Source: a bacterium (lineage in GTDB: Bacteria; Patescibacteriota; CPR2; UBA1875; JAJYID01). Taken from it: a stretch of DNA of 64,000 nt. A program made the translations under genes and the position numbers. Shown one piece after another: positions 1 to 49,137 of this stretch. Below the pieces are notes generated by a model, which saw only the letters and a list, made by a program, of their open reading frames with translations, had not been told where the DNA came from and did no database searches. The number at the start of each line of letters is the position of its first letter. Positions within the stretch are counted from its first letter, which is position 1. The DNA lies in assembly GCA_030647205.1 (NCBI GenBank), contig JAUSJO010000005.1:74523-138522 (forward strand), in the 5' to 3' direction.

Positions 1-480
1 TCCGCCTACGCCAATAGCAAATCCTGGTTTGGAATCGATTGAAGCGGTATTAAGCCCCGAAAATACTAACTACTACTACTTTTTCTCAGGTAAGGATGGA
101 AAGACCTATTTTTCGGAAAATCAGGATCAGCATGAAGCACTAAAGGCAAAGTATTTGTAGGTTTGTCATCCTGAGGTACGAAGAATCTCATCCTGTCATT
201 CCGGGCTTGATCCGGAATCCAGGCTAGTTAAATCTGCTATCGCAGTCATCATCATTTATCTACTTTTTTAGAAAAAGTAGAATCAAAAATCACCGACTAG
301 CACTACGAAATAGATAAAACTAATAAAAATTTATCATTCAAAACACGAAGCGTTTCACTAAAGCGTGCTTTTGTCCTAAAGGAACATTCTAAATTTTTAA
401 GTTTTATTGACTATTTCTTCGTGATGTCGGAGAAAATTAAGATTAAAATTTAGGCGGATTCGTTTGACAAGGGTAAGCTT
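1..480. repeat. Composite intergenic repeat element (type B body, hairpin units at 160-225), truncated by the window edge
   Basis: Positions 245-475 are near-identical to 19855-20100. Positions 170-222 carry GTCATCC/GTCATTCC...GGAATCC hairpins. Positions 60-115 share the 'gaaagacctatttttcg' module with 55980-56000. Confidence 0.8.
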
Positions 481-493
481 GTCGGGGTATAAT
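464..493 (+). promoter_or_regulatory. Sigma70-like promoter: TTGACA (464-469), 18-nt spacer, TATAAT (488-493)
   Basis: Hexamers read directly from the sequence, upstream of the LysM-CHAP gene. Confidence 0.5.
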
Positions 494-562
494 CTTGTTC
501 GTATCTTTAGGGAGGAAGCTTTACTGATATTGATAGAATAAAACCCCTTCAAGTACAAAAAA

Positions 563-1747
563 ATGAAAAAAATCTTTAGGCCTATTGGCCAAAATACTAA
601 AAAAATATTTTCCAAAGCTAAAGCGCCGTTTACAAACGTAAAGATGCCTGACAAGGAAGCATCCTTAGGTTGGGTTTCGGGAAAGAAAGAAGGCGCGGGG
701 AGCATATTTAAGCGTTCAACGAGACGGTTTTCTCATTATGCCGTGATGTTTATATTCCTGATCGTGATTGCTGTTGGGGTCTTTACAAGACCTCACGAAA
801 ATAAAACGGAAAAAAACCCTTATCTTTTCAATAAGGTTGATGAAGAGGTCAATGAGGTAACTTATATGCAGTCGGTAGCGACTATTGGCGGTATAGTTGA
901 CGAGAAGATCAGTCAACAGGTTTATGAAGTAGAAACAAAGAATGATACAGCTCCTGTTTTGGCGGTGGCTGGAAATGGATTTTTGGCGAAACCGGTTTTA
1001 TCAGAAGCGCGAAGTTCGGGGGATAAACCAAAGAATGATATAACCGAGTATATTGTAAAAGATGGAGATACACTCTCAATCATCGCAAACAGTCTTGGGC
1101 TTACAACAGACACCTTAAGGTGGGCAAACAATATCGATGACCCGGACTCTGTAAAGCCCGGAACGAAACTTCTGATACCTCCGACTAATGGTGTTTTATA
1201 TACTGCTCAGGCAGGAGATACCATTGAGTCTATCGCAAGCAGATACAGCGGTAGCGCATCTATGATTATTGCTCAAAATGACTTATATGGAGAAGAGATC
1301 AAGGCCGGGATGAGAATAATGATACCTGATGGTGTAGGACCTGACGTTGTAAAGCCTGAACCTGAGCCAGAACCACAACAAGAGGAAGACGATGCTCCTG
1401 CGCCTCAACCAAGAACGAAAGTGGCTTCATATGGTGGCTCGTCTTACAATAGGTTTCCATATGGCTGGTGCACTTATTATGTCGCATCTAGACGAAATGT
1501 ACCGTGGAGCGGAAATGCAGGAGACTGGTACTGGAATGCTCAAAGAGCCGGATATTCAGTTGGCAGGGCGCCGTCTGCGGGAGCTATCATGGTAACGGGC
1601 GAGTCCGGTTGGGGGCATGTGGCATACGTAGAAAGCGTAAGTGGTGGATCATTCACCGTTTCTGAGATGAACTATGCGGGTTGGGGTGTTGTTTCAAGAA
1701 GGACAATTACAACCGGTCAGGTTCCGTTGTACGGGTTTATTTATTAG
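563..1747 (+). CDS. Secreted or membrane-anchored peptidoglycan hydrolase: N-terminal TM helix, two LysM repeats, C-terminal CHAP domain
   Basis: LysM motifs DGDTLSIIANSLGLTTDTLRWANNI and AGDTIESIASRY. CHAP-like C-terminus (YGWCTYYVASRR...GHVAYVESV) with Cys/His. The start may be an internal ATG at 641. Confidence 0.7.
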   Translation: MKKIFRPIGQNTKKIFSKAKAPFTNVKMPDKEASLGWVSGKKEGAGSIFKRSTRRFSHYAVMFIFLIVIAVGVFTRPHENKTEKNPYLFNKVDEEVNEVTYMQSVATIGGIVDEKISQQVYEVETKNDTAPVLAVAGNGFLAKPVLSEARSSGDKPKNDITEYIVKDGDTLSIIANSLGLTTDTLRWANNIDDPDSVKPGTKLLIPPTNGVLYTAQAGDTIESIASRYSGSASMIIAQNDLYGEEIKAGMRIMIPDGVGPDVVKPEPEPEPQQEEDDAPAPQPRTKVASYGGSSYNRFPYGWCTYYVASRRNVPWSGNAGDWYWNAQRAGYSVGRAPSAGAIMVTGESGWGHVAYVESVSGGSFTVSEMNYAGWGVVSRRTITTGQVPLYGFIY

Positions 1748-1825
1748 CTAATAGTTTTTAGTTTTAATTTTGCAATTTGCAAACCTATCCTCATAAGAGG
1801 ATAATTTATTTTAAGAAAGGTAAGT

Positions 1826-3127
1826 ATGTTTTGTGATAAGGTGACAATTAAACTTACAGCGGGCAAGGGCGGAGATGGGCTTGTCAACTTTTTGCATGAA
1901 AAATATCGTGAAAAGGGAGGGCCGGACGGTGGAAATGGCGGCCACGGAGGAAGTGTTTTCATTGTTACAGATGCGAGCGTCAATACTCTTTATGCCTATA
2001 AAACAAAGAGCCGGTTAAAGGCGGAAAACGGAGAAAACGGCAAAAGAAGAGCAAAGGCGGGCGTCGGAGCAAAAGATTTATACGTAAAGGTTCCGATTGG
2101 AACGGTTATATACGACGAGGAAACAGGAGAAAAAATATTTGATTTAACAGGGGAAAAACAGGCAGTGCTAGCCGCAAAAGGTGGAGAAGGCGGGTATGGC
2201 AACGCTCACTTTGTCTCATCGGTCAGACAAGCACCTCAAGTAGCAGAAATAGGCGAAAGAGGAGAAGAAAGGTTTGTGCGGATGGAGCTGAAACTGATAG
2301 CCGATGTCGGTCTTGTAGGCTTGCCTAACGTCGGGAAATCGACTCTGCTTTCCGTGGTATCTGCTGCTAAACCGAAAATCGCCGACTATCATTTTACAAC
2401 GCTGGTTCCGAACTTGGGTGTTGTTGACGGTTCTAAATTTGGAATAGAAAACTTTAGTTTTGTGATTGCTGATATTCCGGGGCTGATCGAAGGCGCTTCT
2501 CAGGGGAAGGGTTTGGGCGATGAGTTCCTGCGCCACGTTGAGCGGACAAAAGTACTCGTTCATATTATCGAGTCAACGAGCCAAGACTTCGTAAAAGATT
2601 TCGACGATATAAATAATGAACTCGAGGTATTTAATAAGGACTTAATCCAAAAACCGCAGATTGTAGTGCTTTCAAAGGCAGATTTGTCAGCTGATTTCTC
2701 GGCGAGTTTAAAGAAATTCAAGGCGCATTTGAAGAAAGTTAAGGGAATACAAATCGTGAACCAAGAGCCAATCGTGATTTCAGCGCCAACCCACCAAGGT
2801 GTAAAAGCGCTGATGTCGCAAGTTGCCCAAACTTTACAAAAATATCAGCCGAAGGAGGAAGAAGTAATACAAGAAGAGTACAAAGTATTTACGCCGGAGG
2901 ATTTGGTTGGTAATAGATTTTCAGTCGAAAAGGAAGATGACAAGTTCATTATTACCGGGGCAAAAATAGAAAGGTTCGCCCGAAAAACTGACTTTAACAA
3001 TATCCATGCCAAGACGAGATTTGTAGATATTATGAAAAAAACAGGGATCTTGAAGGAACTTGAAAAACAAGGAGCAAGATCAGACTCGAACATTGAGGTT
3101 TCAGGAAAGAAATTTAAGTTAGGATAA
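1826..3127 (+). CDS. obg: GTPase Obg/CgtA
   Basis: Gly-rich Obg fold (GGDGGNGGHGGSV), G1 motif GLPNVGKST, C-terminal OCT/TGS-like domain. Confidence 0.9.
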   Translation: MFCDKVTIKLTAGKGGDGLVNFLHEKYREKGGPDGGNGGHGGSVFIVTDASVNTLYAYKTKSRLKAENGENGKRRAKAGVGAKDLYVKVPIGTVIYDEETGEKIFDLTGEKQAVLAAKGGEGGYGNAHFVSSVRQAPQVAEIGERGEERFVRMELKLIADVGLVGLPNVGKSTLLSVVSAAKPKIADYHFTTLVPNLGVVDGSKFGIENFSFVIADIPGLIEGASQGKGLGDEFLRHVERTKVLVHIIESTSQDFVKDFDDINNELEVFNKDLIQKPQIVVLSKADLSADFSASLKKFKAHLKKVKGIQIVNQEPIVISAPTHQGVKALMSQVAQTLQKYQPKEEEVIQEEYKVFTPEDLVGNRFSVEKEDDKFIITGAKIERFARKTDFNNIHAKTRFVDIMKKTGILKELEKQGARSDSNIEVSGKKFKLG

Positions 3128-3129
3128 AA

Positions 3130-4008
3130 GTGACCATAAAAGAAATTCTAATTTGGAGCACGAAAGAACTCAAAAATAACAATGTTTCCGAACCTGAAAA
3201 GTCGGCAGAGCTTTTGTTGCGGCAAATATTAAATTGGGACAAAGCGAAGTTGATAGCGAATCCGGATTACAAATTGAATTCTGCTCAGGAAAGTAAATTC
3301 CGGGAATTCATTGAAAGACGTAAAAAACATGAACCGGTTTGGTATATCACGGGAAAAATCGAATTTTACGGATTAGATCTGGCAGTAAACCAGGATGTAC
3401 TTATCCCGAGACCGGAAACGGAATTTTTAGTTGAGGAAGTTCTCTCTGTCATTCTGACGAAGGAAGAATCTAAAAAGAGATCCTTCGTGCCTCAGGATGA
3501 CATATTTAGGATATTAGAGCTAGGAACCGGCAGCGGTGCGATTGCATTGTCGTTGGCAAATAAATTAAAGTCAAAAATATTTGCTTCAGATATTTCAAAA
3601 GAAGCTCTAGAAGTTGCAAAGAAAAATACGAAGAAATTAGAATTAGAAAAATACATTGAGTTTAGACAGGGGAGTTTGTTTGAACCGTGGGGCAGTGAGA
3701 AATTCGATTGTTTCGTAGCGAATTTGCCATATATTCCACATGAAGATATGAGCTCGTTAGCTCTAGATATCCATCACTTCGAGCCACGCTTAGCATTAGA
3801 CGGAGGGAAAGAAGGATTAGAAATTTATGAGGAGCTGTTGTCTCAAGCAGGAGATTATTTAAACGAAAACGCTATGATGTTTTTTGAGATAGGAATTGAT
3901 CAGGGAGATAAATTAAAGAAATTAGTAGAAAAATATCTGCCGAAAGCAAAAGTGAGGATTATAAAGGATTATGGCGATATAGATCGCATAGCGGTTATTT
4001 CTACCTAA
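3130..4008 (+). CDS. prmC: Release-factor glutamine N5-methyltransferase PrmC/HemK (GTG start)
   Basis: SAM-binding motif LELGTGSGAIAL and the NPPY-type motif 'NLPYIP'. Confidence 0.8.
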   Translation: MTIKEILIWSTKELKNNNVSEPEKSAELLLRQILNWDKAKLIANPDYKLNSAQESKFREFIERRKKHEPVWYITGKIEFYGLDLAVNQDVLIPRPETEFLVEEVLSVILTKEESKKRSFVPQDDIFRILELGTGSGAIALSLANKLKSKIFASDISKEALEVAKKNTKKLELEKYIEFRQGSLFEPWGSEKFDCFVANLPYIPHEDMSSLALDIHHFEPRLALDGGKEGLEIYEELLSQAGDYLNENAMMFFEIGIDQGDKLKKLVEKYLPKAKVRIIKDYGDIDRIAVIST

Positions 4009-4029
4009 GCTGCTTGCCCCGCCAGAAGA

Positions 4030-4400
4030 GGGTAAACTCTGTGGAGGGATCCCTTTCTCTGTCATCCTGAGGCACGAAGGATCTCAATCCCATCATCCCC
4101 ACCTTCCTCTGTCATTCCCACGGAGGTGGGAATCCAGTCTTTAAAATATTATCCACTTTTTTAGAAAAAGTGGAGTAAAAATCGCGACTTATGGCGGCGA
4201 CAAAGTGTCGGATTTCAGTTCTCTCTCACTTTGAAAAAATGAACTCGCTAGATCGCTCAGACAACATTATTTTCAAAGTCTTCGTTCGCTTTATCCTCTC
4301 TTTGTCTTCGATAGTCGCATTAGAGATTATTCGGCTTATTCTCTTTTTGAAAAAATCATGCCGGGGGGGAAGTCGGATTTGGTAATTACTTTTGTCTTTT
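4030..4400. repeat. Composite intergenic repeat element (type A body, hairpin units at 4040-4140)
   Basis: Positions 4150-4385 are about 90% identical to 55765-55975. Same modules as 13262-13510 and 48880-49100: hairpin ccacttttttagaaaaagtgg, aaaatcgcgact, tttgaaaaaatgaactcgct, cgatagtcgca, tttgaaaaaatcatgccgg. Confidence 0.85.
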
Positions 4401-4406
4401 TAATTT

Positions 4407-4425
4407 TTGATTTGAGATTTATAAT
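4407..4425 (+). promoter_or_regulatory. -10 TATAAT (4420-4425) placed 6 nt before ATG 4432, implying a leaderless mRNA; TTGATT lies 7 nt upstream
   Basis: Read directly. Same architecture as 37841, 43784, 44955, 53630 and 57254. Confidence 0.45.
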
Positions 4426-4431
4426 CAAGTC

Positions 4432-5121
4432 ATGAAAGACAGAATAGAAAAACATACTCATGTAGAGAAAGATCTGCAGAAAAAACTAGTAAGGATCGGG
4501 GAGATTGTACAGAGTAACGAGAGAAACGCAGTTAAAGTATCTCTTATCAATGATATTTTAGGGGAGATGACTGACAAGTTTCTTGATATCCATTATCGGG
4601 CTTTAACGGACGAGATGACCGGTTTTGTGAATCGCTGGTTTTTGAATGAATTCCTAAAGAAAACAATGAAGTCCAGCCAAAGATATGGGCAGGACCTTTC
4701 TCTTGCGATTATGGATATAGATCATTTCAAAACAGTCAATGATACTTTCGGGCATACCGCGGGCGATATGGTTATTAAGGAAATTGCCGTAATAATTACT
4801 AAAAATATTCGTTCATCCGATGTGGTCTCTCGTTATGGCGGAGATGAGTTCATAGTTATCTTTCCTTCCACGAACCTTACTGATGCGAAAATCGTAATGA
4901 ACAGAATAAAACTTGCTGTAGCAGAGTATGAGTTTAGAGGCGGTATAAAGTCCGGGATAAGTTTTGGTATCGCAAATCTAAAGAAAAAGCACAGACTTTT
5001 TGAGGATCTGGTGAAAGACGCTGATGTAAAACTGTATAAAGCAAAAAAACATAGGGTAGACCCAAATGCAGGCGCAAAAAAGAGCCGTTTAAAGAAAGTA
5101 GTATCCCAGGCGAAAAAGTAG
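4432..5121 (+). CDS. Diguanylate cyclase: N-terminal coiled-coil plus GGDEF domain with intact GGDEF and RxxD I-site
   Basis: RSSDVVSRYGGDEF motif and DIDHFKTVND. Confidence 0.8.
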   Translation: MKDRIEKHTHVEKDLQKKLVRIGEIVQSNERNAVKVSLINDILGEMTDKFLDIHYRALTDEMTGFVNRWFLNEFLKKTMKSSQRYGQDLSLAIMDIDHFKTVNDTFGHTAGDMVIKEIAVIITKNIRSSDVVSRYGGDEFIVIFPSTNLTDAKIVMNRIKLAVAEYEFRGGIKSGISFGIANLKKKHRLFEDLVKDADVKLYKAKKHRVDPNAGAKKSRLKKVVSQAKK

Positions 5122-11212: not shown

Positions 11213-11318
11213 ACACTCTTGTCATCCTCGGGCTTGACCCGGGGATCTAGAGCAAAGATATCGGAGGAGAACAGAAGAAAGGAATGGATTCCCGCCTTCG
11301 CGGGAATGACACAAGGAA
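11213..11318. repeat. Two GTCATCC...GGATC / GATTCCC...GGGAATGAC hairpin repeat units
   Basis: Palindromes cttgtcatcctcgggcttgacccggggatc and gattcccgccttcgcgggaatgac belong to the same hairpin family as the other sites. Confidence 0.75.
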
Positions 11319-12513: not shown

Positions 12514-13193
12514 TGAAGGATTTTGCCAAACTACAGAAAAAAATCGGAACTAACTTTAAAGATGAACAGCTTCTAATAAACGCCTTTATCCACCGTTCAT
12601 ACTTAAACGAAAACTCTGATTATGCCCAACACAACGAGCGTCTCGAATTCTTAGGAGACGCGGTTTTGGAGTTGGTGACAACCGAGTTTTTATATCAAAA
12701 CTACCCAAACCCAGAGGGAGACCTTACAAACTGGAGAAGCGCTCTTGTAAAAACCGAAACCATTTCTGATGTTTCAAAGAGCCTTGGATTTGAAGATTAT
12801 CTTTTCTTGTCTCGAGGAGAGTCCAAGAGTAAAGGTAGAGCTAGGCAGCTTATCTTGGCAAACTGTTTCGAAGCGGTCATTGGGGCTACATATTTAGACA
12901 GAGGTTATGATGAAGCAAAGAAATTTATTACAAAACATCTTTTGAAACTACTTCCTGAAATTATCGAAAAGAAACTATATGTTGATGCAAAAAGCCAACT
13001 TCAGGAAATTGCGCAGAGGAATGAGAGTATAACACCGAGGTATGACGTTTTGTCAGAAACTGGCCCGGATCACAAAAGGGTATTTAAAATCGGTGTGTTC
13101 TTAAATGACAAGAAAATCGGTGAGGGTGAAGGGGCATCAAAACAACTTGCCCAGCAGGCAGCGGCTGAGGACGCACTAAAAAGTTATAAATAG
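12513..13193 (+). CDS. rnc: Ribonuclease III
   Basis: RNase III signature ERLEFLGDAVLEL plus a C-terminal dsRBD. Confidence 0.9.
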   Translation: MKDFAKLQKKIGTNFKDEQLLINAFIHRSYLNENSDYAQHNERLEFLGDAVLELVTTEFLYQNYPNPEGDLTNWRSALVKTETISDVSKSLGFEDYLFLSRGESKSKGRARQLILANCFEAVIGATYLDRGYDEAKKFITKHLLKLLPEIIEKKLYVDAKSQLQEIAQRNESITPRYDVLSETGPDHKRVFKIGVFLNDKKIGEGEGASKQLAQQAAAEDALKSYK

Positions 13194-13196
13194 TTC

Positions 13197-13515
13197 TCTT
13201 TCTCTGTCATTCCGACCGAAGCGGAGGAATCCCTTTCTCGTCATTCTGGCTTGTCCAGAATCTATTATTATTTATCCACTTTTTTAGAAAAAGTAGAGCA
13301 AAAATCGCGACTAGACGGCTTCTCAAAGTGTCGCTCAAACCTCATCTCAAATTTGAAAAAGGACAACAAGCCGATTCCGGAAGCCCTTTTCCAAAATTTC
13401 GTCTCGGTTTTCACTCGCTTATTGAACCGATAGTCGCAAATACTATTTATAAAGTTCATTCTCGCTTTGAAAAAAATCATGCCGGAGGACTCTCTTCCTT
13501 TGTGATGCTGGGAGT
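13197..13515. repeat. Composite intergenic repeat element (hairpin units 13200-13265 plus a type A variant body)
   Basis: Same module order as the 4030 and 55603 copies. ORFs at 13251-13561 on both strands lie inside it and are judged spurious. Confidence 0.8.
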
Positions 13516-13589
13516 AAAATTTCAATTTTCGAATCTTTTTTCTTGTGCTACAATAGTTTAGATTTATTTAGGATTTTTTGGAGGCGTAT

Positions 13590-16127
13590 TTGTATTTAAA
13601 AAATATCAATGTAACGGGGTTTAAATCTTTCGGGGCGAAGAACGTCTTGGATTTTCCCCGTGAAGGAAAAGGCAAGCAGCGAAGCTTTACCGCTGTTGTC
13701 GGACCAAACGGAAGCGGGAAGAGCAATATCGCAGATGCTATCCGCTGGGCATTGGGCGAACAATCCTCTAAGTTATTACGAGTTAAGAAAAACGAAGATG
13801 TCATCTTTTTTGGAAGTGCCAAGAAGGGCAAAGGGTCGTTCACCGAGATTTCAATGACTCTTGATAACTCCGACAAGTCCGCGCCGGTTGATCTCACTGA
13901 AATAGAAGTAACTCGCCGTCTCTACAGAAACGGCGACAACGAATATCTTATTAACCGCAAAAAAGTACGGCTTTTAGACGTTCAGGAGTTGCTTGCCAAG
14001 TGTGGCATCGGACGCTCAACTTATACTGTTATCGGCCAGGGGATGGTTGACTCGCTTTTGTTTTATGGCCCCGCAGAAAGAAAGGTTCTCTTTGAAGAAG
14101 CGTCAGGGGTTAAACAATATGAGATTAAGCGGTCGGAATCCATAAGGAAACTGGATGCCACCGATAAAAATATTATCCGCATAAAAGATTTGCTATACGA
14201 ACTCGAGCCAAGGCTGAAGCAGGCAGAGAGACAGAACAAGAAATTCCAGAAAAAGCAGGAGATAGAGACGGAGCTGGATGAACTCAGTCGTAAATACTAC
14301 ACAAATGTCTTATCGGATATTACGGGCAAAAAGTCTGTTTTGGACGCAAAGCTAGAAAAACTGAGAGAGCAGGAAGGTGTCTTAAAGTCAGAAATAGTTG
14401 CCATTGAAGCTCGCATTGCCAAGGGATTAAAAGCACAAGGGAGCGATAAGGAAGAAAAAGAGCTAAAGGCGAAGATTGATGGGTTGTATTCTAAGAAGAA
14501 TGTGATTTCGCAGCAAATTTACAAAATCCAGGCAGAGAGTGAGGCAGTTGTATCGGTTTATGCCAGAGAAAAGGATGGTTTGGTCCGTGAAAAAGAAACT
14601 TGCGAGAGGGAGATCGCTAACCTCAAGGAGCGTTCAGCTAGGATTAGTACCGAAAACGGACAGCTGGCAGAGAGACTAAATGGTGCGAAAAAGGAACTAG
14701 AAGGCATTGATGTAAAAATTGTAGCGGCAAACGAGGAACTTGCAAAAGCGCAGCGGGAAAGCGTGGTCATGGGTAAAGACGACATCTCACGAGAGCTTGA
14801 AAGTGTATCCGCTGACTATAAAAAGATAGTTACGCAAATTAGTACGGTCAAGGACTTAAAATCACTTACAAATCTCAAATCTGGGGCAGAAGAGTTAAGC
14901 CAAAAGATGGACGAGTTGATAAGAAAGATTAAAAAGAGCCAAAATGCCGATACTTCAAATATAGAGAAGAAACAGGAAGAGATTGGAAGATTATCAGGGA
15001 ATAAAGAAATTATTTTGAAAGAGATTCAGGATTTGAGAGTTCGGGAAATATCTCGGGCAGAGACTTTAAAGAATATTGATACTCAGGCCAAAGATTACGG
15101 CTCAAGACTTGAGGTTGCGGGTCAAAAGATTGCAAAGCTGGAAAAACCGGCCGAAAAAGATTCATCAGAGGTGAATAAATTGATTTCAGAGAAAGAAAAG
15201 TTAGAATCAGAAATTACTGGTTTGAAGGCAAAGCTAGAAAAGATCGAGAATGCCAGCGCAAGCGGGGACTACTCGAAAGTTCTTGAAGAAGAAAAGGCAA
15301 AAAGGGCAGAGATTTCTAGAGTTGGGGACGATATTAACTCGGCAATGGTAGAGCTAGCAAGAGTTGAAACAAAGAGCGATGATCTAAAAAGTGAAATTCA
15401 TGAGTTTTTGGGCGAGGCATTTTACAAAGAAATTTCCGATTCTCGTCATTCTGGCAATGTCCAGAATCCATCAGAAAACGTAGAACATCTAATGCCAAAA
15501 ATTCAACGGCTTCGCAAGGACATGTATGCGCTTGGCGAGATAGATCACTTTATCAAGGAAGAGTTTGAAGAACTAGAGGTGAGAGTTGGTGAGCTTTCAA
15601 GTCAGCTTGGGGATTTGGAAAAAGCAAAAACAGATATTTTAAAAATCATCGGTGAGTTGGATATAAGGATCAAAACACAGTTTCAAGCCACTTTTGCTAG
15701 GATTTCTGAAGAGTTTACTAAATATTTCAAAATACTCTTTAATGGCGGCAATGCGACGCTAAATCTGGAGACAGATGAAGAGGGGAACTTTGGAGTAGAA
15801 ATAGGCGCGACACCGCCGGGGAAGAAAAACCAGTCATTGAATTCATTATCAGGTGGCGAAAGAGCGCTGACGTCTATAGCACTTCTTTTTGCAATTCTGT
15901 CCGTCAATCCAAGCCCATTCTGTGTACTTGATGAGGTTGATGCCTCGCTTGACGAAACAAATACAGAACGATTTCTAAAAATATTACAGACGCTTTCTCA
16001 TAAAACTCAGTTTGTCGTGGTTACGCATAACCGCGAAAGCATGAAAAAAGCCGACATTATTTACGGCGTTTCGATGGATGACAACCACGTCTCGCAGGTG
16101 TACTCTTTGAAACTGACGGAAGTTTAG
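13590..16127 (+). CDS. smc: SMC-like chromosome segregation ATPase: short, hinge-less, all coiled-coil between the head halves
   Basis: N-terminal FKSFG...GPNGSGKSNIADAIRWALGEQS (Walker A). C-terminal LSGGERALTSIALLFAI signature and Walker B (CVLDEVDASLD). RBS GGAGG precedes TTG 13590. Only about 845 aa with no Gly-rich hinge visible. Confidence 0.8.
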   Translation: MYLKNINVTGFKSFGAKNVLDFPREGKGKQRSFTAVVGPNGSGKSNIADAIRWALGEQSSKLLRVKKNEDVIFFGSAKKGKGSFTEISMTLDNSDKSAPVDLTEIEVTRRLYRNGDNEYLINRKKVRLLDVQELLAKCGIGRSTYTVIGQGMVDSLLFYGPAERKVLFEEASGVKQYEIKRSESIRKLDATDKNIIRIKDLLYELEPRLKQAERQNKKFQKKQEIETELDELSRKYYTNVLSDITGKKSVLDAKLEKLREQEGVLKSEIVAIEARIAKGLKAQGSDKEEKELKAKIDGLYSKKNVISQQIYKIQAESEAVVSVYAREKDGLVREKETCEREIANLKERSARISTENGQLAERLNGAKKELEGIDVKIVAANEELAKAQRESVVMGKDDISRELESVSADYKKIVTQISTVKDLKSLTNLKSGAEELSQKMDELIRKIKKSQNADTSNIEKKQEEIGRLSGNKEIILKEIQDLRVREISRAETLKNIDTQAKDYGSRLEVAGQKIAKLEKPAEKDSSEVNKLISEKEKLESEITGLKAKLEKIENASASGDYSKVLEEEKAKRAEISRVGDDINSAMVELARVETKSDDLKSEIHEFLGEAFYKEISDSRHSGNVQNPSENVEHLMPKIQRLRKDMYALGEIDHFIKEEFEELEVRVGELSSQLGDLEKAKTDILKIIGELDIRIKTQFQATFARISEEFTKYFKILFNGGNATLNLETDEEGNFGVEIGATPPGKKNQSLNSLSGGERALTSIALLFAILSVNPSPFCVLDEVDASLDETNTERFLKILQTLSHKTQFVVVTHNRESMKKADIIYGVSMDDNHVSQVYSLKLTEV
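15443..15470. repeat. Hairpin repeat unit (tcgtcattctggcaatgtccagaatcc) inserted in-frame inside smc
   Basis: Near-identical to the intergenic unit at 13237-13263. It is read through as ...SDSRHSGNVQNPSE.... Confidence 0.7.
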
Positions 16128-18457: not shown

Positions 18458-18532
18458 CAATTTTGTCATTCTGAAGCACGACTTCAGAATCCAGAAAATA
18501 TAGATTCTCAGGTCAAGCCCGGAATGACAGAT
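18458..18532. repeat. Two hairpin repeat units (gtcattctgaagcacgacttcagaatcc; gattctcaggtcaagcccggaatgac)
   Basis: Same GTCATTC...GAATCC family, in opposite orientations. Confidence 0.7.
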
Positions 18533-19727: not shown

Positions 19728-20110
19728 AATCTTGTCATTCCGACCGATACCACGCTAGTGGAAAGCGGAGGAATCCCTTTCTCCGTATGTCATTCCCGCA
19801 CTGGATCTAGTTCAGCGTAAACATCCGGCGGGAATCTAGTCTTTAAAATATTATCCACTTTTGTTTGGGCAAAAGTGGAGCAAAACCCACCGACTAGCAC
19901 TACGAAATAGATAAAACTAATAAAAATTTATCATTCTTGCGCACGAAGCGTTTCACTAAAGCGTGCTTTTGTCCTAAAGGAGCATTCTAAATTTTTAAGT
20001 TTTATTAGCGACGTAAGGTGAGTGGTATGAAAAGGTAATCCTTTTTTATATCTGAGCCGAGGAGCTAAAATATTTTAACTATTTCTTCGTAATGTCGGGA
20101 AGAGAACAAA
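19728..20110. repeat. Composite intergenic repeat element (hairpin units 19730-19850 plus a type B body)
   Basis: The body is near-identical to 245-475. Confidence 0.85.
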
Positions 20111-20231
20111 AAATCACGCCGGACGAGATACTGTGACGTTGGGAGGAGAGAAAAATTTTCCACTTTACACGGAGTCAAAAAATATCTATTATTTATCTAT
20201 AAAACTAAAATATTGAGGGAGTTTATTTAAA

Positions 20232-21249: not shown

Positions 21250-23298
21250 ATGGATAAGTTTGTATTAAAAAGCAAATACGCACTCACCGGCGACCAACCT
21301 GATGCTACGGCAAAGCTGATTCGCGGTTTGGAAAAAGGTCTGGATAAGCAGATTCTTTTAGGCGTGACCGGTTCGGGCAAGACTTTCACGGCGGCAAATG
21401 TCATTGAAAAGATCAACAAGCCAACAATAGTTATCTCTCACAACAAAACTCTTGCTGCTCAGTTATATTCAGAATTCAAAGAGTTTTTCCCCGATAATGC
21501 CGTCCGCTATTTCGTCAGTTATTATGACTACTACCAGCCGGAGGCGTATATCCCTAGAACTGACACATACATTGAAAAAGATTCTAGTATAAATGAAGAA
21601 ATTGATCGTCTGAGGAATGCTGCAACGGCGGCGCTTCTTTCGCGTCCTGACACCCTCATAGTCGCCAGTGTTTCCTGTATCTATGGTCTTGGCTCGCCGG
21701 AGGACTACATAAATATGAAACTGGATTTTGAGGTGGGTAAAGAGCTAAATCAAGAGAAAGTAATGAAAAAGCTCCTTGCCGTACAATATGAGCGCAATGA
21801 TCAGGCGTTTGAACGGGGAAAGTTTCGTGTTCGCGGAGATGTTCTCGATATATTCCCTGTGTATGAAGAAAAGGCTATTCGTATAGTATTTGATGGCAAT
21901 GTTGTAGAGTCCATTCGCGACTTAAATCCTTTGACTGGCGAACTGGGTAAAAAAACGGATAAGATTTCTATCTTTCCGGCGAAGCATTTCGTAACTCCAA
22001 GAGAGAAACTGCTTGGTGCAATCCCTGAAATAATGAAGGAGCTGCAGATACGATTAAAGATATTAAAGAAAGAAGGAAAGCTTCTGGAAGCGCAAAGGCT
22101 GGAACAGCGCACCAAGTTCGATATGGAGATGATCAAAGAAACCGGCTATTGTTCAGGGATAGAGAACTATTCTCGCTACTTGGCGGGTAGAAATCCCGGT
22201 GAACCGCCGGCAACGTTACTGGACTTCTTTCCTGATGACTTCCTTATGCTTATTGACGAGTCGCATATGAGCGTCCCGCAAGTCAGAGGGATGTATAACG
22301 GCGACCGGTCCAGAAAAGAAACTCTCGTCGAACATGGATTCCGTCTCCCATCGGCACTAGATAACCGCCCGCTTCATTTCTCAGAATTTAAGAAATTCAT
22401 GGATAAAACTATCTTTATCTCAGCAACACCTGGCGATTATGAATTCAGAACAGCGAGCGACCATAAAATAGGTTCTAGCGATGAGTATTATGAAAAGGCG
22501 AGAAAAGGTGCAAACTTCGACTGGATATCCGAGCAGGTTATCCGTCCGACAGGACTTTTGGATCCCGAAGTTGAAGTGAGAGGTACGAAACATCAGATAG
22601 ATGACCTTATGAATGAGATCCAGATGCGGGTGAAGAAAAAGCAGCGTGTGATAGTCACAACACTTACAAAGCGGATGGCGGAGGACTTAAGCGAGTATCT
22701 ACAGGAGCTAAATATCAAAGTGACTTATATCCACTCGGAAATCAACACTCTGGAGCGCCCTGAAATTCTGCGTGATCTCCGAAAAGGGATTTATGACGTG
22801 GTAATCGGTGTGAATCTCCTTCGTGAAGGGTTGGATCTCCCCGAAGTTTCATTAGTAGTTATTCTAGATGCAGATAAAGAGGGATTCTTGAGGGGTGAAA
22901 ATGCCCTGATCCAAACTATTGGCAGGGCAGCACGGCACTCCGAAGGAAAGGTCATAATGTATGGTGACAAGATGACGAGGTCTATGAAGAAAGCGATATC
23001 AGAGACGGCGAGAAGGCGAAAAATACAGGAAGAATATAATAAAAAACACGGCATCACACCGACAACTATCAAAAAATCTATTCGTGAAGATATAGCCTCG
23101 TCTAAGAAAAGCAAAAAAGAAGAAAAGTTCGATATTATCGATATGCCGCCGGATGAGCTGGAAAGAATTATTAAAGATATGCGAAAGCAAATGGTGATTG
23201 CCTCAAATAACTTAGAGTTTGAGCAAGCCGCTAAACTCCGCGACCAAATACGTGAGATTAGAGACCGCTTGGAATCTCAACGCAAATTTAAGCCTTAA
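21250..23298 (+). CDS. uvrB: Excinuclease ABC subunit B
   Basis: Walker A GVTGSGKTFT, helicase motifs, C-terminal UVR motif (EFEQAAKLRDQIREI). Confidence 0.95.
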   Translation: MDKFVLKSKYALTGDQPDATAKLIRGLEKGLDKQILLGVTGSGKTFTAANVIEKINKPTIVISHNKTLAAQLYSEFKEFFPDNAVRYFVSYYDYYQPEAYIPRTDTYIEKDSSINEEIDRLRNAATAALLSRPDTLIVASVSCIYGLGSPEDYINMKLDFEVGKELNQEKVMKKLLAVQYERNDQAFERGKFRVRGDVLDIFPVYEEKAIRIVFDGNVVESIRDLNPLTGELGKKTDKISIFPAKHFVTPREKLLGAIPEIMKELQIRLKILKKEGKLLEAQRLEQRTKFDMEMIKETGYCSGIENYSRYLAGRNPGEPPATLLDFFPDDFLMLIDESHMSVPQVRGMYNGDRSRKETLVEHGFRLPSALDNRPLHFSEFKKFMDKTIFISATPGDYEFRTASDHKIGSSDEYYEKARKGANFDWISEQVIRPTGLLDPEVEVRGTKHQIDDLMNEIQMRVKKKQRVIVTTLTKRMAEDLSEYLQELNIKVTYIHSEINTLERPEILRDLRKGIYDVVIGVNLLREGLDLPEVSLVVILDADKEGFLRGENALIQTIGRAARHSEGKVIMYGDKMTRSMKKAISETARRRKIQEEYNKKHGITPTTIKKSIREDIASSKKSKKEEKFDIIDMPPDELERIIKDMRKQMVIASNNLEFEQAAKLRDQIREIRDRLESQRKFKP

Positions 23299-28440: not shown

Positions 28441-28532
28441 CGTGCTATAGTAAGCACTCAAATTAGCTACGAAAGTTAGGGGGTAGCCTCTAACTTTTTA
28501 AAAGCTCGAACTTTGAAACGAGGTGAACTAAG
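28441..28532 (+). promoter_or_regulatory. Extended -10 promoter (TGcTATAGT) plus an ~85-nt conserved leader, copy 1
   Basis: About 80% identical to 29553-29642 upstream of a different gene. Confidence 0.6.
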
Positions 28533-29552: not shown

Positions 29553-29642
29553 TGTGCTATAATAAACACTCAAATTAGCTAGGAAAAGTTGGAGGGTATC
29601 TTCAGCTTTTTAAATGCTTGAACTTTGAAAAAGGAGACGGTA
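29553..29642 (+). promoter_or_regulatory. Extended -10 promoter (TGcTATAAT) plus the conserved leader, copy 2
   Basis: Paralogous to 28441-28532. Confidence 0.6.
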
Positions 29643-34984: not shown

Positions 34985-35767
34985 ATGAAATCCAGGATTT
35001 GTTTACTAATTTTTGCTCTCGCACTAATGGCCTTTCCATTAGGAAATGTTAATGCCGCTGTTAAAGTTAATGGCTATATTAGAGATGGAAAGTGGGTTAG
35101 CAGTTATGTTCGTTCCGAACCAAATGCATTAAAATATGACAATTATAGCTATAAATCCGGTGATGATCTTTACAACAAGAGTTATTCTTCTTCCACTAAG
35201 AGTTATTCTTCAAAATGGTATACGCCCTCATATAGCTGGGACGATGATTATTACACTGGTCTTTCTTGGTACAATACTTACGGTGGAGGAAGTAAAACTA
35301 AAACTTATAGTTCATCATATTCCCCGTCTTTAAGTAGTTATACTTTTCCCAGCACAAGTAGTTATTCACTAGATAATGATAACTATTACTCAAGTTATTG
35401 GACTTCTAGATATAAACCTTCATATTCTTCCAGCACTTATAAATCGTTATTTGATGATTCTGAAGACGATAATAATAGTTATACGCCTTCATATAATTCA
35501 ACATATAAACCCTATACTCCTAGTTACACCCCAAGCTACAAACCTTACACACCCAGTTACACAACACCGAGTTACACCACTCCAAGCTATAAACCCTATA
35601 CTCCTAGTTACAGTACGCCGAGCTACAATTCTTACGCACCAAGCTATGGGTCTTCAAGTTATGGTAGCTCTGGAAGTTCTTATGGCGGATATGGTTCTTC
35701 GAGTTATGGCAGTTCGTATGGTTCTGGAAGTTATGGTTCAAGCTATGGATCATCATATAATTATTAG
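34985..35767 (+). CDS. Secreted Ser/Tyr/Gly/Pro-rich low-complexity repeat protein
   Basis: Signal peptide MKSRICLLIFALALMAFPLGNVNA; repeats (TPSY/KPYTPSY)n and GSSYG. Confidence 0.55.
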   Translation: MKSRICLLIFALALMAFPLGNVNAAVKVNGYIRDGKWVSSYVRSEPNALKYDNYSYKSGDDLYNKSYSSSTKSYSSKWYTPSYSWDDDYYTGLSWYNTYGGGSKTKTYSSSYSPSLSSYTFPSTSSYSLDNDNYYSSYWTSRYKPSYSSSTYKSLFDDSEDDNNSYTPSYNSTYKPYTPSYTPSYKPYTPSYTTPSYTTPSYKPYTPSYSTPSYNSYAPSYGSSSYGSSGSSYGGYGSSSYGSSYGSGSYGSSYGSSYNY

Positions 35768-37853: not shown

Positions 37854-38957
37854 ATGGAAGAAGAAGAGCTAAAGAAACCTAATTTCTTTAAAAGACACTG
37901 GAAGCTTTTGATGATAGTTTTCGGGATACTTATTATTCTGGCTGTTGGTACTATTGTCGGCCTTAATAAACTAGATAGGTATTATAAAGAAAAGTCCGGA
38001 GAGGTCGCCCCAAAAGTCGAGACAGAGTGCAAAAAGCCCGAGTTCACTCATCCCATGACTGATCTATCAAAGATTGCTTCTATCGGGAAGCTGGGTGGTT
38101 TTGGCTGTGGTTCGCCGGCGAGAAGCTACCTTACGATTAAGGGAGGTGAAGTTCCTGTATATGCGCCGATGGATGCTACTCTCGAGACCATTATTTATAC
38201 ACCGAGAGGTGGACCGGAAACTCCGCCGGAATATGGACTGTATTTTAATGCCGGTTGTAATGTGACATTTCTGTTGGATCATATAGACAGAGTGACTGAT
38301 GAGCTGAAGGCACTAGCGCCACAGCAGCCGGCTGAGTCTACCAGGACTGAGCTTGGAACGCGTCCGAACAAGAAGATTAAAGCAGGGACACTAGTCGGCT
38401 ACTCTGATGGTACACCACAGGCGAAGACATTTGACTTTCTGGTGATGGATATGTCAAAAGTGGGGGAGCATATAAATCCTTCTCGTTGGGAGACTGACCA
38501 GGCTAAGTATGGGGTTTGTCCGTACGACTACTACATTGCCCCTTATAAGGAGCAGTTTATGGAGAAGATAGGGATTAGTAGTGATACTGGTTTCACACCG
38601 GAGGATAGCTGTGGAATACCTTCTCAGGATGTGGTGGGCACACTCTCGGGAGGTTGGTTTAAGGGTACGGGTACCAATATGAAAGGCGAATTTTTAGGTA
38701 TCGGCCAGAACATACTAAGGGTTGAAGTGGCCTTGCGTAAGGATGGTAACTTTGACTTTAGTCTGCAGGACTGGGATATGGGGAAGAAAAAGCCGAAAGA
38801 CGTGAAGGTAGGGGAACAAATCTGCTACAGCGACCAAGGTAGTAATCTCTGGGCATGGATAAGGTTAGTTTCCCAAGATAAAATCTCGTTTGCGAAGGGC
38901 AGCGGGAAGTGTCCGGCCGCTTTTCCGGAATCTCAGGCGGAAATTTGGGAAAGATAG
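37854..38957 (+). CDS. Hypothetical membrane-anchored protein
   Basis: ORF. Leaderless start MEEEELKKPNFF with a TM anchor. Confidence 0.5.
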   Translation: MEEEELKKPNFFKRHWKLLMIVFGILIILAVGTIVGLNKLDRYYKEKSGEVAPKVETECKKPEFTHPMTDLSKIASIGKLGGFGCGSPARSYLTIKGGEVPVYAPMDATLETIIYTPRGGPETPPEYGLYFNAGCNVTFLLDHIDRVTDELKALAPQQPAESTRTELGTRPNKKIKAGTLVGYSDGTPQAKTFDFLVMDMSKVGEHINPSRWETDQAKYGVCPYDYYIAPYKEQFMEKIGISSDTGFTPEDSCGIPSQDVVGTLSGGWFKGTGTNMKGEFLGIGQNILRVEVALRKDGNFDFSLQDWDMGKKKPKDVKVGEQICYSDQGSNLWAWIRLVSQDKISFAKGSGKCPAAFPESQAEIWER

Positions 38958-38981
38958 TTTCAATGTAGAACAGTTTCTGTG

Positions 38982-39167
38982 CTATTTTTTATTTATATAT
39001 TTCCACAATGCGGCGATACCGAGAATTAGGGCGACTATGACGAGTATGTAGCCAATCCACATAAAAATCATGGCTCCGCCATAGCTTCCACCCATCATGT
39101 TTTGATAGGAATCGTAGTTGTACATCATTGTAAATCTCCTTTGTTTAGCTTGAGTATAGGTAAACAA
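38982..39167 (-). CDS. Tiny single-TM protein, paralog of 42520-42708 (real start probably MMYNYDSY...)
   Basis: About 85% amino-acid identity to the paralog. RBS AAAGGAG precedes ATG ATG. Confidence 0.55.
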   Translation of the reverse strand: MFTYTQAKQRRFTMMYNYDSYQNMMGGSYGGAMIFMWIGYILVIVALILGIAALWKYINKK

Positions 39168-39558
39168 TGATGGATTTACTATGGGCAGGAATACAAAAGA
39201 ATCAGAACATTTTCGTGGCTATTTTTTAGCTAAATCCAGCAAGTTTTTGAAAAGAGTTAAGGCCGCCCTTGCGGGCGGCCTTGTTGGTACGTGTTTTCGC
39301 GTTGTTTTCTTGCAGTTTCTGGTTGTCAGCCTTGGGAGCTAATTATCAAGAGCATTAACGCGATGCAGAAGATAGCTATGGGGAGCCAGTTTCTTTTGAT
39401 GTCTCTCCCGAGCTCAAACAAGGGCCAGAACATCTCGTCGCGATTCGCCACCTTCTTGATTCTTGTCATTCTTGTCGTCATTGCGATAACCTCCTTGAGA
39501 TGTTACGTGGTTAGTAACATGCCGATTGACTGGGGTGCAGGTGTACATGGAAGTTGGC

Positions 39559-39951
39559 CTATACGGCCAGAGATTCCTTTTTTGAGCGGAGTCGTTCGAG
39601 TGTTTGCTGGAGCCTAGCGAGCTCAGGTCTGACTGCCTTGATTGCATAAAGGCGCTGAGAAGCAGTGAGCGGAGGATCGTTCGTGATTTCTTCAAGCCGC
39701 GGTGCTGAGCCGAGAGGGAAAAGGGGAGGGGTAGTAAATCCAGGTATATCCATTGCGCATAAACCCTCCTTATTGATAACCAGATTTCCCCGCTCATCCG
39801 ACTCGAAAGTAATTGCCTTAAAGTAAGAATCAGCGAGTTCAGCTGTGATCTCTTTGATGAGCTTGTCTGCCTGAAGCGCGAGCTCATCCTCTGTTCCTTT
39901 TTCGGCCGCTTCATCCCAGGTCATCTCAGTTTTTTGTTCTGACGACATCAA
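39559..39951 (-). CDS. Acidic hypothetical protein
   Basis: Strong RBS AGGAGG. GC-rich. Confidence 0.5.
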   Translation of the reverse strand: MMSSEQKTEMTWDEAAEKGTEDELALQADKLIKEITAELADSYFKAITFESDERGNLVINKEGLCAMDIPGFTTPPLFPLGSAPRLEEITNDPPLTASQRLYAIKAVRPELARLQQTLERLRSKKESLAV

Positions 39952-40058
39952 AACCTCCTAGGGTAGTTACGCTTTTTGAAGCTCATCCTAACTTACAAAA
40001 GTCTGAAGATTATAATACTTTTAAGATAAATTCTCAACCCAAACCTCGAATTTTTCCA

Positions 40059-40092
40059 AAAGAAAAAGACGGGTGACTAGCACCCGTCTTTT
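40059..40092. terminator. Bidirectional terminator
   Basis: aaaaagacgggtgactagcacccgtctttt. Confidence 0.65.
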
Positions 40093-40110
40093 GGATTGGA
40101 ATCCTCCTTG

Positions 40111-40587
40111 CTATACCGAAGAAAGCCGCTCTGTTAATGCTTTTTCCTCGCGGATTTTCCGGAGTATTTTCCGCACGCGCCGGAGAGAAGGCTTGAATCT
40201 CCTGATTGCTGCTTCTCGCTGAAAATCGTACGGTAATGCATCTATGGCATGAGGGTACATGATCGATAGCCCTTGGCTCGCAACGACCAGTCTGTTTCCG
40301 TCTTTCTTCATCAGATCGACGATCTTGCCCTCTCCGGCAAGTTCCGAAATCATCTTCTGGATAATAAGGTCGACTTCATATGCAAGCTGTTGTTCGTACT
40401 GAGGGCTGTCGGCCTTGTCCCAAGTTAGTTCGAATTCGCGATCGAGAATAGCTTGATAACCTTTGTCTACCTCCTTAAGGTCAATAGTCCCGGCCAGAAT
40501 TCGATTTCGAATTTCTGTTTCCTTTCTGTAAATGGCCAACATCAGATCGTCCTCGACAGCTTTTTTGTCTTTCGCCGTCATCGACAA
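40111..40587 (-). CDS. Hypothetical protein
   Basis: RBS AAGGAGG. Confidence 0.5.
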   Translation of the reverse strand: MSMTAKDKKAVEDDLMLAIYRKETEIRNRILAGTIDLKEVDKGYQAILDREFELTWDKADSPQYEQQLAYEVDLIIQKMISELAGEGKIVDLMKKDGNRLVVASQGLSIMYPHAIDALPYDFQREAAIRRFKPSLRRVRKILRKIREEKALTERLSSV

Positions 40588-40723
40588 CCTCCTTTGGATA
40601 CGTACCTCTAGCGGAGGTATTCGCCTTATCTCGATATGAGACGACCCCTAAGCGGATAGGGGAATTAGGCATTCATTCTAACATAATTATTATGTATTGT
40701 CAATAAAATCTCAAAAAGGATTT

Positions 40724-40751
40724 TTAGAAAAAGCAAAAAGGCCCCTTGCGG
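40724..40751. terminator. Bidirectional terminator
   Basis: aaaaaggccccttgcggggccctttt. Confidence 0.65.
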
Positions 40752-40774
40752 GGCCCTTTTAAAATCAGGTGTTG

Positions 40775-41017
40775 TTACTTAGGAGGAATAGAGATTGGTG
40801 ATGCATCCGGTGTTCCGGTGTCACCGTCCCAGGGGGGTTCATCTGATCTTTGGATGGCGATATCGTACAACCCCGGTCCTGTCTTGAAGATGATTGTCTG
40901 AGTGTGTTCGATTTTCGGACTCGTTGCTGTCCCGTTTTGGTTGCCGCAACTTGCGATCAGAACGAGACTGACCAGAAGGGCAACTACCAGCAGGATCCTC
41001 TGTACGTTTATTGACAT
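40775..41017 (-). CDS. Small lipoprotein
   Basis: Signal peptide plus lipobox LIASC. Confidence 0.5.
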   Translation of the reverse strand: MSINVQRILLVVALLVSLVLIASCGNQNGTATSPKIEHTQTIIFKTGPGLYDIAIQRSDEPPWDGDTGTPDASPISIPPK

Positions 41018-41220
41018 GACTCCTCCTTGAGTCTCTGTTTTCCAGAATATTTTTTACCGCTTCGTTAGAAGCGGAGTAACCTGATTTAATGTATGGTTCA
41101 CTCTAAAGCCAAAATTTCTGCTTAAGAGAATAATGTATACTACCATAGAATATCTTTTTTGTCAATAGTTATTTAAACCCCAAATTCTCACCTTCGCAGT
41201 AGAAAATAGGGGAAACTACA

Positions 41221-41254
41221 GGCACGAGATTTTGCTATCGCACAATCTCGTGCC
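41221..41254. promoter_or_regulatory. 34-bp palindrome ggcacgagattttgctatcgcacaatctcgtgcc (copy 1)
   Basis: Perfect 11-bp arms. The second copy lies 167 bp downstream. Confidence 0.5.
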
Positions 41255-41387
41255 ACCTCACTCCTAAAACTCAGGATTATAAAGTAAAACTCAGAAATAT
41301 TGATGATATTTGCTTTTGTATACTTGTTTCTCATTTCTGAAAGGCATTAAAATATTTAGCACAAAGACAAAGTTAACGGCACGAGTT

Positions 41388-41421
41388 TTTGCTATCGCTC
41401 AAACTCGTGCCTTATAAAGGA
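41388..41421. promoter_or_regulatory. 34-bp palindrome ggcacgagtttttgctatcgctcaaactcgtgcc (copy 2), immediately before the PaaX-like gene
   Basis: Read directly. Confidence 0.5.
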
Positions 41422-41426
41422 AACAA

Positions 41427-41960: not shown

Positions 41961-42044
41961 TTCTCAACATTTTGCTACCTGTCCGCCCGTAGCTTCAGCG
42001 AAGGAGGATCGCTCAAAGTTGAGAATTTATAAGACATGTTTTGA

Positions 42045-42497: not shown

Positions 42498-42519
42498 TAT
42501 ACACCAGGGCAGAATGTGG

Positions 42520-42708: not shown

Positions 42709-42765
42709 TGATTTTCCTATGGGCAGGAATACAAAAGAATCAGAACATTTTTGTGGGCGGTCTCG

Positions 42766-49100: not shown

Positions 49101-49121
49101 ATTTACTTATCTGCTAAATTC

Positions 49122-49130: not shown

Positions 49131-49137
49131 TGCACTC

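Follow-up and report, generated by a model that had tools for sequence, protein, structure and literature searches.

How does a palindromic repeat come to be translated within an essential gene? The question is raised by the smc gene of a Patescibacteria metagenome-assembled genome (MAG), in a stretch of 64,000 nucleotides (nt) of contig JAUSJO010000005.1 (positions 74,523 to 138,522), hereafter called the window. A preliminary description of this DNA reported that a hairpin repeat found between genes also lies in frame inside smc, and likened it to the Rickettsia palindromic elements (RPEs). Our analysis makes it likely that this segment of smc is a copy of a dispersed, oriented hairpin repeat of the kind described as Ssn-related motifs (SRM), with single-stranded DNA (ssDNA) as the proposed route of its spread.

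The hairpin unit in smc and its family

The smc-type gene, encoding an SMC_N ATPase, occupies an 849-codon open reading frame (ORF) on the plus strand (13578-16127), within the conserved gene order rnc-smc. Its called protein product, P0001, begins with a TTG (13590), has 845 amino acids (aa) and is identical to the database protein MDO8507595.1, which is encoded on a MAG contig of 279,812 bp. The hairpin unit spans 30 nt of the plus strand at 15441-15470, TCTCGTCATTCTGGCAATGTCCAGAATCCA (15443-15470: tcgtcattctggcaatgtccagaatcca). Its ten codons, TCT CGT CAT TCT GGC AAT GTC CAG AAT CCA, translate to SRHSGNVQNP, residues 618-627 of P0001. The ORF around the unit reads ...KEISDSRHSGNVQNPSENVEH..., with the frame kept and no stop codon, and the tryptic peptide across the insert is ...EISDSRHSGNVQNPSENVEHLMPK. 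Both the signature LSGGERALT and the Walker B motif FCVLDEVDASLD, located 3' of the unit, are intact, as the preliminary description had stated.

As ssDNA the smc copy forms a hairpin (-5.2 kcal/mol) whose 7-bp stem, ATTCTGG/CCAGAAT (15448-15454 paired with 15461-15467), is closed by the 6-nt loop CAATGT. The palindromy is confined to this core and the ends are oriented, TTCTC-GTC on the 5' side and C-CAT on the 3' side. The closest sister copy belongs to the same 'CTGG' subfamily and lies between genes at 13235-13263 (+), 42 nt past the rnc stop. The two share exact matches of 16 and 11 nt and differ in the loop alone (CAATGT versus CTTGT), so that the near-identity noted earlier stands. The pattern TTCTCGTCATTCTGGC-N(1-2)-TGTCCAGAATC has exactly two matches in the window, 13235-13262 and 15440-15468, and no occurrence across 100 dinucleotide-preserving shuffles. 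This pattern and the ssDNA fold together make the resemblance of the smc segment to the intergenic repeat real and beyond chance. Furthermore, P0001 is present in both NCBI and Logan, and the allele of a related SMC protein, P0008, was found on two JGI contigs from two samples, which argues against an assembly artefact. A role as a terminator was considered for the smc copy as well as for the intergenic copies, and was rejected for the smc copy because the hairpins have no following T-run and this copy lies within an intact ORF.

The family pattern GTCATYC-N(6-30)-GRATCY gave 20 matches in the window against 0.41 expected. The match at 24437 has no hairpin and was dropped, whereas 19789-19836, truncated by the pattern, and 55703-55746, missed by it, were recovered separately, for a curated total of 20 copies (16 on the plus and four on the minus strand). 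Their common layout is a Y-rich tract, GTC, a palindrome opening with AT(T/C)C, a variable upper stem and loop, and then C-YRN, often C-YRG. GTC precedes AT[TC]C in every copy (20/20), and a complete C-YRG is found in six. In a set of 63 short copies taken from the window and its relatives, positions 6-8 of the stem form base pairs (GC, CG and AU types) in 71-76% of copies; selection of these copies required the first five stem pairs and made no use of pairs 6-8.

Although 82% of the window is coding, confirmed coding sequence holds just three of the 20 copies, so that the family shows a strong depletion in coding DNA. The intergenic copies begin 3-53 nt past the stop codon of the upstream gene and are arranged as tandem arrays or convergent doublets. 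The plus strand has a positive GC skew throughout the window and carries 55 of the 66 genes. For most hairpins the forward sequence is thus on the strand exposed as ssDNA when it serves as lagging-strand template; the same strand is the mRNA sense strand, and the two are inseparable here.

Empty, filled and replaced coding sites

The twelve closest SMC proteins, P0002-P0013 (83-48% identical), were aligned, and DNA was obtained for most of them. At the codon of the smc hairpin, five orthologues have no hairpin, one has the same hairpin and six have other families or a long variant. The alleles without a hairpin (L030/P0002, L007, P0006, P0009 and P0012) have a shorter linker, e.g. KEILHSKPDSKEDVE. 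The same subfamily at the same codon is found in L028/L029 (P0008; SESRHSGKDQNPAE), and a long-loop variant of the window hairpin's family in L002 (P0007). L001 and L031 carry a second hairpin family (TCTGCAKAGGGT..ACCCTATGCAGG), L033 and L003-L005 a third (CAAGGGTCTGACCCTTG), with stems of up to 19 bp. Some hairpin thus sits at exactly this codon in 9 of the 14 alleles examined, from three unrelated families. The codon is a hotspot that has been taken by three hairpin families in different lineages.

Folded as DNA, the filled alleles form a hairpin and the empty alleles form none (z about 0). P0008 (75% identical) is the only other carrier of the window's hairpin, which is present at the DNA level and goes beyond peptide similarity. 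An SRHSGNVQNP-type peptide is missing from the more distant SMCs P0013-P0030 in the alignment. The preliminary description had expected relatives to lack the insert, as five do, and had held that the same peptide in SMCs of unrelated lineages would mark it as ancestral coding sequence, which is not what the alignment shows. Its insert of about 9 aa has to be revised, since the net gain over the empty alleles is 5 aa and the ancestral linker is mostly replaced.

The smc copies of P0001 and P0008 both have a 6-nt loop beginning with CAA, whereas the remaining short copies of their subfamily have a 5-nt CTTGN loop (10/10). Because of this one extra loop base the unit has a length of 30 nt (ten codons). 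Third positions of the stem codons are identical between the window and L028 in 7 of 7 cases, compared with 53.6% gene-wide at identical residues (p about 0.013), which suggests either a nucleotide-level constraint or a younger common origin.

An AlphaFold2 model of the SMC protein, built from an 18-sequence alignment (mean pLDDT 76.6), predicts helices at 609-620 and 634-648 and, between them, the loop 621-633, in which pLDDT drops below 50 at 622-625. The insert thereby falls where the C-terminal coiled-coil arm is interrupted, about 90 residues ahead of the C-terminal head. A second coding site, hotspot 1, is empty in the window genome: the N-terminal head loop LDNSDKSAPVD (residues 91-101, 13860-13892, plus strand), modelled between strands 84-92 and 104-112. 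Relatives L030, L031, L033 and L001 have in-frame hairpins there, inserted between LDNSDKS and APVD. In L030 and L031 this is a hairpin like the NTS repeat of Neisseria, in reverse orientation and read as SRLRGND; L033 has two hairpins and L001 a long palindrome. On the model, both sites are plausibly permissive for insertion, and two SMC loops, that of the head β-hairpin and the C-terminal arm break, would be marked as insertion-tolerant. In precomputed Pfam lists the SMC hinge domain is absent from the 845-aa P0001 and its 120 best database relatives, and at the expected hinge the modelled helices run to a short break near 419-423 (RESVVMGKDDI).

Two further genes show the same behaviour. 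In prmC (3130-4008), which encodes PrmC_N and methyltransferase domains, a convergent hairpin pair (3448-3501; 3448-3471 on the plus and 3478-3501 on the minus strand) is in frame and read as VILTKEESKKRSFVPQDD in the inter-domain linker, which has 12 extra residues compared with T. maritima HemK. The prmC of L033 has more hairpin-encoded inserts, e.g. SFPRRRESS and SSRAERSGVEG. UvrB of L031 is 94% identical to that of the window apart from 62 inserted aa that include VIPAEAGIQ, a stretch encoded by the NTS sequence GTCATTCCCGCGGAGGCGGGAATCCAG. The point after ...SSDEYYE.. in uvrB is hypervariable, with these 62 aa in L031 (13407-13676), a different 24 aa in L033 and none in the window (22462-22545). 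The NTS hairpin of the L031 insert is preceded by a truncated 5' half-hairpin.

In-frame hairpins are general in this clade (smc, prmC, uvrB), and the surviving coding copies occupy loops or linkers of SMC, PrmC and UvrB. The hairpins explain odd peptides (RHSG..QNP, VIPAEAGIQ, SRLRGND) as well as the length variation of these proteins in the clade. That the family is mobile, as stated earlier, or at least turning over, is supported by presence and absence at the two smc sites, prmC, uvrB and intergenic sites, and by near-identical copies at different loci. A search of the literature for palindromic elements lying in frame in genes of Patescibacteria yielded nothing specific.

A composite unit, GTCATTCCCRCC-(Y-rich 7-9 nt)-GTCATTCCCGCGNAGGCGGGAATC, recurs in the relatives and consists of a 5' half-hairpin followed by a complete NTS-like hairpin. 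It was found in L001 (13138-13180, 14428-14470 and 4865-4906), L033 (445-487 and 13110-13152) and L031 (13521-13565), and looks as if one hairpin copy had been inserted into another.

Identity and spread of the repeat

The NTS of Neisseria, CGTCATTCCCGCGMAVGCGGGAATCYRG, contains dRS3 and is bound as ssDNA by SsnA, a 94-aa GIY-YIG nuclease that cuts a few nt upstream of it (Chenal et al., Nat Commun 2025, PMC11893778). Three bases 5' of the palindrome and a C 3' of it are critical for SsnA, the C being the most critical for binding (PMC11893778). Ssn proteins are single-domain GIY-YIG proteins (cd10448) of about 94 aa whose genes usually have the motif at their flanks, and SRM are spread over different phyla, with many copies in symbionts whose genomes are reduced (PMC11893778). 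NTS are rarely intragenic (2% in N. meningitidis), and the arrangement NTS-ssnA-NTS was speculated by its authors to be like an insertion sequence (IS) (PMC11893778).

The smc copy has these SRM traits: an imperfect palindrome in the 20-50 nt range with a predicted hairpin as ssDNA, a C-GTC-ATTCTGG 5' flank, an ATTC...GAAT base and a C after the palindrome. Its 3' end, ...CCAGAAT-C-CAT, fits C-YRG at the C, Y and R, the final G being replaced by T. Elsewhere in the window, 11284-11311(-) differs from the NTS by mismatches at two terminal positions only, and this NTS-like copy (11277-11318, minus strand) folds at -8.9 kcal/mol (z = -3.9). The relatives carry GTCATTCCCGCG[C/G/A]AGGCGGGAATC, an exact match to the NTS core. 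The likeness extends to the oriented build, in which (C)GTC on the 5' side is followed by an ATTC/ATCC palindrome, a C right after it and then often YRG, and to the occurrence as tens of copies in non-random clusters near genes, often in arrays. There are also differences. Here three of 20 copies are intragenic, and more in relatives, translated in frame in essential genes; the host MAG belongs to the Patescibacteria, which PMC11893778 does not mention; and the window has no visible ssn gene.

RPEs are about 100-150 bp long and each family encodes a conserved peptide, according to Ogata et al. (2000) as reported in PMC10969869. The resemblance noted in the preliminary description holds for behaviour, namely palindromic repeats in frame in unrelated housekeeping genes, at fold-compatible positions and in a reduced genome, as far as RPEs are described in PMC10969869. 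It does not extend to family membership: the window unit is about 30 nt (10 aa), five times shorter than the RPE size given there, it is read in different frames in different genes, and it occurs in another lineage with no sequence relationship shown. By its anatomy the family is NTS/SRM-like and not an RPE, and 'RPE-like' describes only what it does in smc, prmC and uvrB.

Two other classes of repeat were compared. REP/REPIN elements are mobilised by RAYTs, IS200/IS605-like Y1 transposases. The hairpins share with them imperfectly palindromic units, 20-40 nt long, whose conserved end is asymmetric, a location mostly directly downstream of genes, frequent convergent doublets, mosaic clusters and a presumed recognition as ssDNA hairpins. 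However, REPs are essentially extragenic, and their conserved flank is GTAG instead of the GTC seen here. No RAYT/Y1 transposase Pfam domain was found among the called genes of the relatives' fetched loci or the window proteins scanned. Like MITEs, the miniature inverted-repeat transposable elements (Correia, ERIC, Nezha and others), the hairpins are small, non-autonomous repeats that can make in-frame fusions, but the unit is far shorter and, judged from filled versus empty smc sites, has neither the terminal inverted repeats of a parent IS nor a target-site duplication.

The repeat would have spread via an ssDNA intermediate on the lagging-strand template, where its hairpin and asymmetric flanks may be recognised by a trans-acting enzyme encoded elsewhere; plausible candidates are a GIY-YIG ssDNA nuclease of the Ssn type and other enzymes specific for hairpins. 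New hairpins may land preferentially at or next to existing ones, or replace them. Such landing would give rise to tandem and convergent clusters, to nested 'half + full' NTS units and to the turnover of three families at one codon. Selection would remove insertions elsewhere in genes, and frame-preserving, stop-free copies in permissive loops would remain. At the protein level we infer that the 10-aa insert is a tolerated passenger.

Several observations weigh against this reading of the smc segment as an SRM-type copy spread via ssDNA. The hairpin alleles replace most of the approximately 24-nt linker seen in the empty alleles, and filled versus empty sites show no target-site duplication or clean junction; these sites thus give no proof of simple (cut-and-paste) insertion. 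A neighbour-joining tree places P0001 in a clade with 100% support to which P0008 does not belong, which implies an old insertion with many losses or replacements, a parallel insertion, or recombination. The smc copy does not match the published strict SRM string HGTCWYN(0-2)YYVSBRHN(0-5)WNVSBRGN(0-2)RNCYNB. A tblastn search with a relative's GIY-YIG protein as query found no GIY-YIG/Ssn gene in the 64-kb window, no transposase was found there either, and the gene tables of the relatives show neither Ssn nor a transposase. The query protein has UPF0213 structures as its closest match, its gene lies beside a tRNA gene with no hairpins at its flanks, and it was rejected as evidence for an Ssn; the small GIY-YIG genes of L033, L018 and L022 look UPF0213-like, are located beside tRNA genes and are free of flanking hairpins. 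As to the SRM string, it was built by hand by its authors from 29 genomes of four phyla and matches just two of the 20 window copies, 11220-11250(+) and 11284-11311(-); it was therefore rejected as too narrow a criterion of membership.

A stronger form of mobility is possible, if rather doubtful, in which the SRM/NTS-type hairpins and the two further families would be genuine mobile elements that target pre-existing hairpins or hairpin-prone ssDNA for insertion and replace one another. It is favoured by the occurrence of three families at a single codon of smc, by NTS units nested as 'half + full' and by the mosaic arrays. The empty, filled and replaced coding sites offer a handle on how the hairpins move, and protein constraint keeps their flanks alignable. 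If hairpin-directed mobility were true, this would be the first natural series of such sites, from which the transposition chemistry of Ssn/NTS could be reconstructed.

It seems unlikely that the hairpin is a domesticated signal, useful as DNA or RNA at this position of smc with the peptide as a by-product, for example as mRNA structure or as an Ssn-type cleavage tag against replacement of smc by transforming DNA, as for the NTS in Neisseria. SsnA does restrict NTS-flanked DNA during transformation in N. meningitidis (PMC11893778), and a function would fit the presence of hairpins from three unrelated families at the exact codon in 9 of 14 alleles and the identity of all seven third positions in the stem. 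That identity is, however, equally explained by a recent common origin, and five lineages do without any hairpin at the site. The three families have no common sequence and hence no single sequence-specific reader for all of them, and the same behaviour in the prmC and uvrB loops is what filtering for permissive sites predicts.

Import of the segment through homologous recombination or gene conversion, from a relative's allele or from the intergenic copy 2.2 kb upstream, is improbable. P0001 and P0008, though of different clades, share subfamily, codon, the 6-nt CAA... loop and flanks (ATT TCC GA. TC. ... GAAAACGTAGA), while all 10 other short copies of the subfamily have the 5-nt loop. A sliding-window comparison of identity to L028 with identity to the clade-A genes showed no clear tract of raised identity to L028 beyond the hairpin, the head domains being too conserved to inform, and the loop of the intergenic twin differs in length. 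That the stretch is ancestral coding sequence resembling the repeat by chance, for which the variable linker length in all SMCs examined is the sole argument, is very improbable given the exact 16 + 11 nt match with no hit in 100 shuffles, the family's own hairpin, and its absence from five close and all more distant orthologues.

Read as an SRM-type copy, the smc hairpin extends the NTS/dRS3-like SRM family to the ultra-small genomes of Patescibacteria and indicates that such hairpins can reside in essential genes, although Neisseria is reported to have them almost exclusively between genes. RPE-type behaviour is already known; it is the setting in Patescibacteria and in essential genes that is new for the NTS/SRM type. 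We regard this as a small-scale parallel to the gene-colonising palindromic elements of Rickettsia and do not count it as a system of a new kind.

In the relatives, small single-domain GIY-YIG genes directly adjoin tRNA genes or partial tRNA duplications (L033:1924-2223; L018:3567-3809, minus strand; L022:2464-2688, minus strand; L024:20150-20224). In L018 the gene lies between direct repeats of about 120 nt that end in a tRNA 3' end. This suggests that the small GIY-YIG genes of the Patescibacteria relatives are tRNA-associated mobile cassettes.

Family copies and other repeats in the window

The remaining family copies are spread over both ends of the window. All sites listed in the preliminary description (170-222, 4040-4140, 11213-11318, 13200-13265, 18458-18532, 19730-19850, 55605-55760 and 60006-60066) were recovered; the convergent prmC pair (3448-3471 +, 3478-3501 -) had been overlooked. 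The sister copy of the smc hairpin is in tandem with the plus-strand copy GTCATTCCGACCGAAGCGGAGGAATCC (13206-13232). Further tandem copies on the plus strand are two at 165-220 (165-188 and 195-220) and two at 4061-4135 (4061-4084 and 4111-4135), the latter after a degenerate long copy abutting the prmC stop. Two long-loop copies follow trmD (19734-19836; 19734-19776 and 19789-19836), and three tandem copies lie at 55614-55746 (55614-55637, 55648-55690 and 55703-55746), the middle one 96% identical to 19733-19799.

Convergent doublets occur four times (3448/3478, 11221/11286, 18465/18502 and 60008/60040), with members from different subfamilies; the smc copy is a singleton. Besides the prmC pair, these are a pair in the leuS-yceD spacer (11221-11310; 11221-11248 + and 11286-11310 -, the minus copy being TGTCATTCCCGCGAAGGCGGGAATCCAT), a pair after rpsP (18465-18528; 18465-18492 + and 18502-18528 -), which L001 and L033 share at the orthologous position, and a pair that begins 3 nt past a stop codon (60008-60063; 60008-60037 + and 60040-60063 -). 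The 11286-11310 unit does overlap the first listed ATG of yceD (11284), as described earlier, but the true start is likely ATG 11320, from which YceD has 138 aa compared with 139 aa in the L031 orthologue. With that start, the copy probably lies just upstream of the gene.

Family copies are missing from the central 35 kb (20000-55600), even though intergenic stretches 200-1000 nt long exist there; they are concentrated at 0.1-20 kb and 55.6-60.1 kb. At the gathering threshold, only tRNAs passed an Rfam search of the whole window, and in E-value mode on 13150-15600, 4000-4440 and 38900-42800 no Rfam family was found for the hairpins or for the longer repeat of about 300 nt that accompanies some of them.

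This dispersed repeat (about 250-300 nt) is found at 4140-4431, 13263-13577, 55754-56200 and 48880-49321, and in a variant form at 250-562 and 19850-20230. At four of the six sites it follows the last hairpin of a cluster and precedes the next gene; the 48880 copy has no hairpin upstream, and the spacing differs at 250. It opens with TTATCCACTTTTTTAGAAAAAGTGGAG.AAAAATCGCGACT, has the conserved blocks CAAAGTGTCG, CGATAGTCGCA and CTTTGAAAAAATCATGCC, and has no conserved ORF. The copies at 4140 and 55754 are 92-93% identical. The rnc-smc spacer contains one form in the window and in L031 and the variant form in L033, whereas L028 has only the smc promoter there and L030 a spacer of 15 nt. Of two independent Logan contigs from the same organism, L041 (window about 379-3470) has its end precisely at the hairpin pair of prmC, whereas L040 (window about 56047-64374) begins inside a repeat of about 300 nt; the hairpins and these repeats break short-read assemblies. 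Searches with proteins from the edges of the window likewise gave only short Logan contigs that terminate at the repeats. A scan of viral contigs gave three with the smc-type hairpin and three with the core of the longer repeat, and was uninformative.

Other repeats were also seen. A 238-nt direct repeat (38981-39218 and 42519-42756, 85% identity) is intergenic, flanks a minus-strand gene block and has no Rfam match above noise. A 77-nt repeat (GTGCTATAGTAAGCACTCAAATTAGCTACGAAAGTTAGGGGGTAGCCTCTAACTTTTT..., 79% identity) lies upstream of two neighbouring genes at 28442-28518 and 29554-29630 and contains a hairpin followed by a T-run. The 30-nt repeat CAASMTAYAAACCYTAYACWCCYAGTTACA occurs in three copies within 35499-35612, spaced 33 and 51 nt, inside the ORF 34985-35767, where it presumably encodes a repeated peptide.

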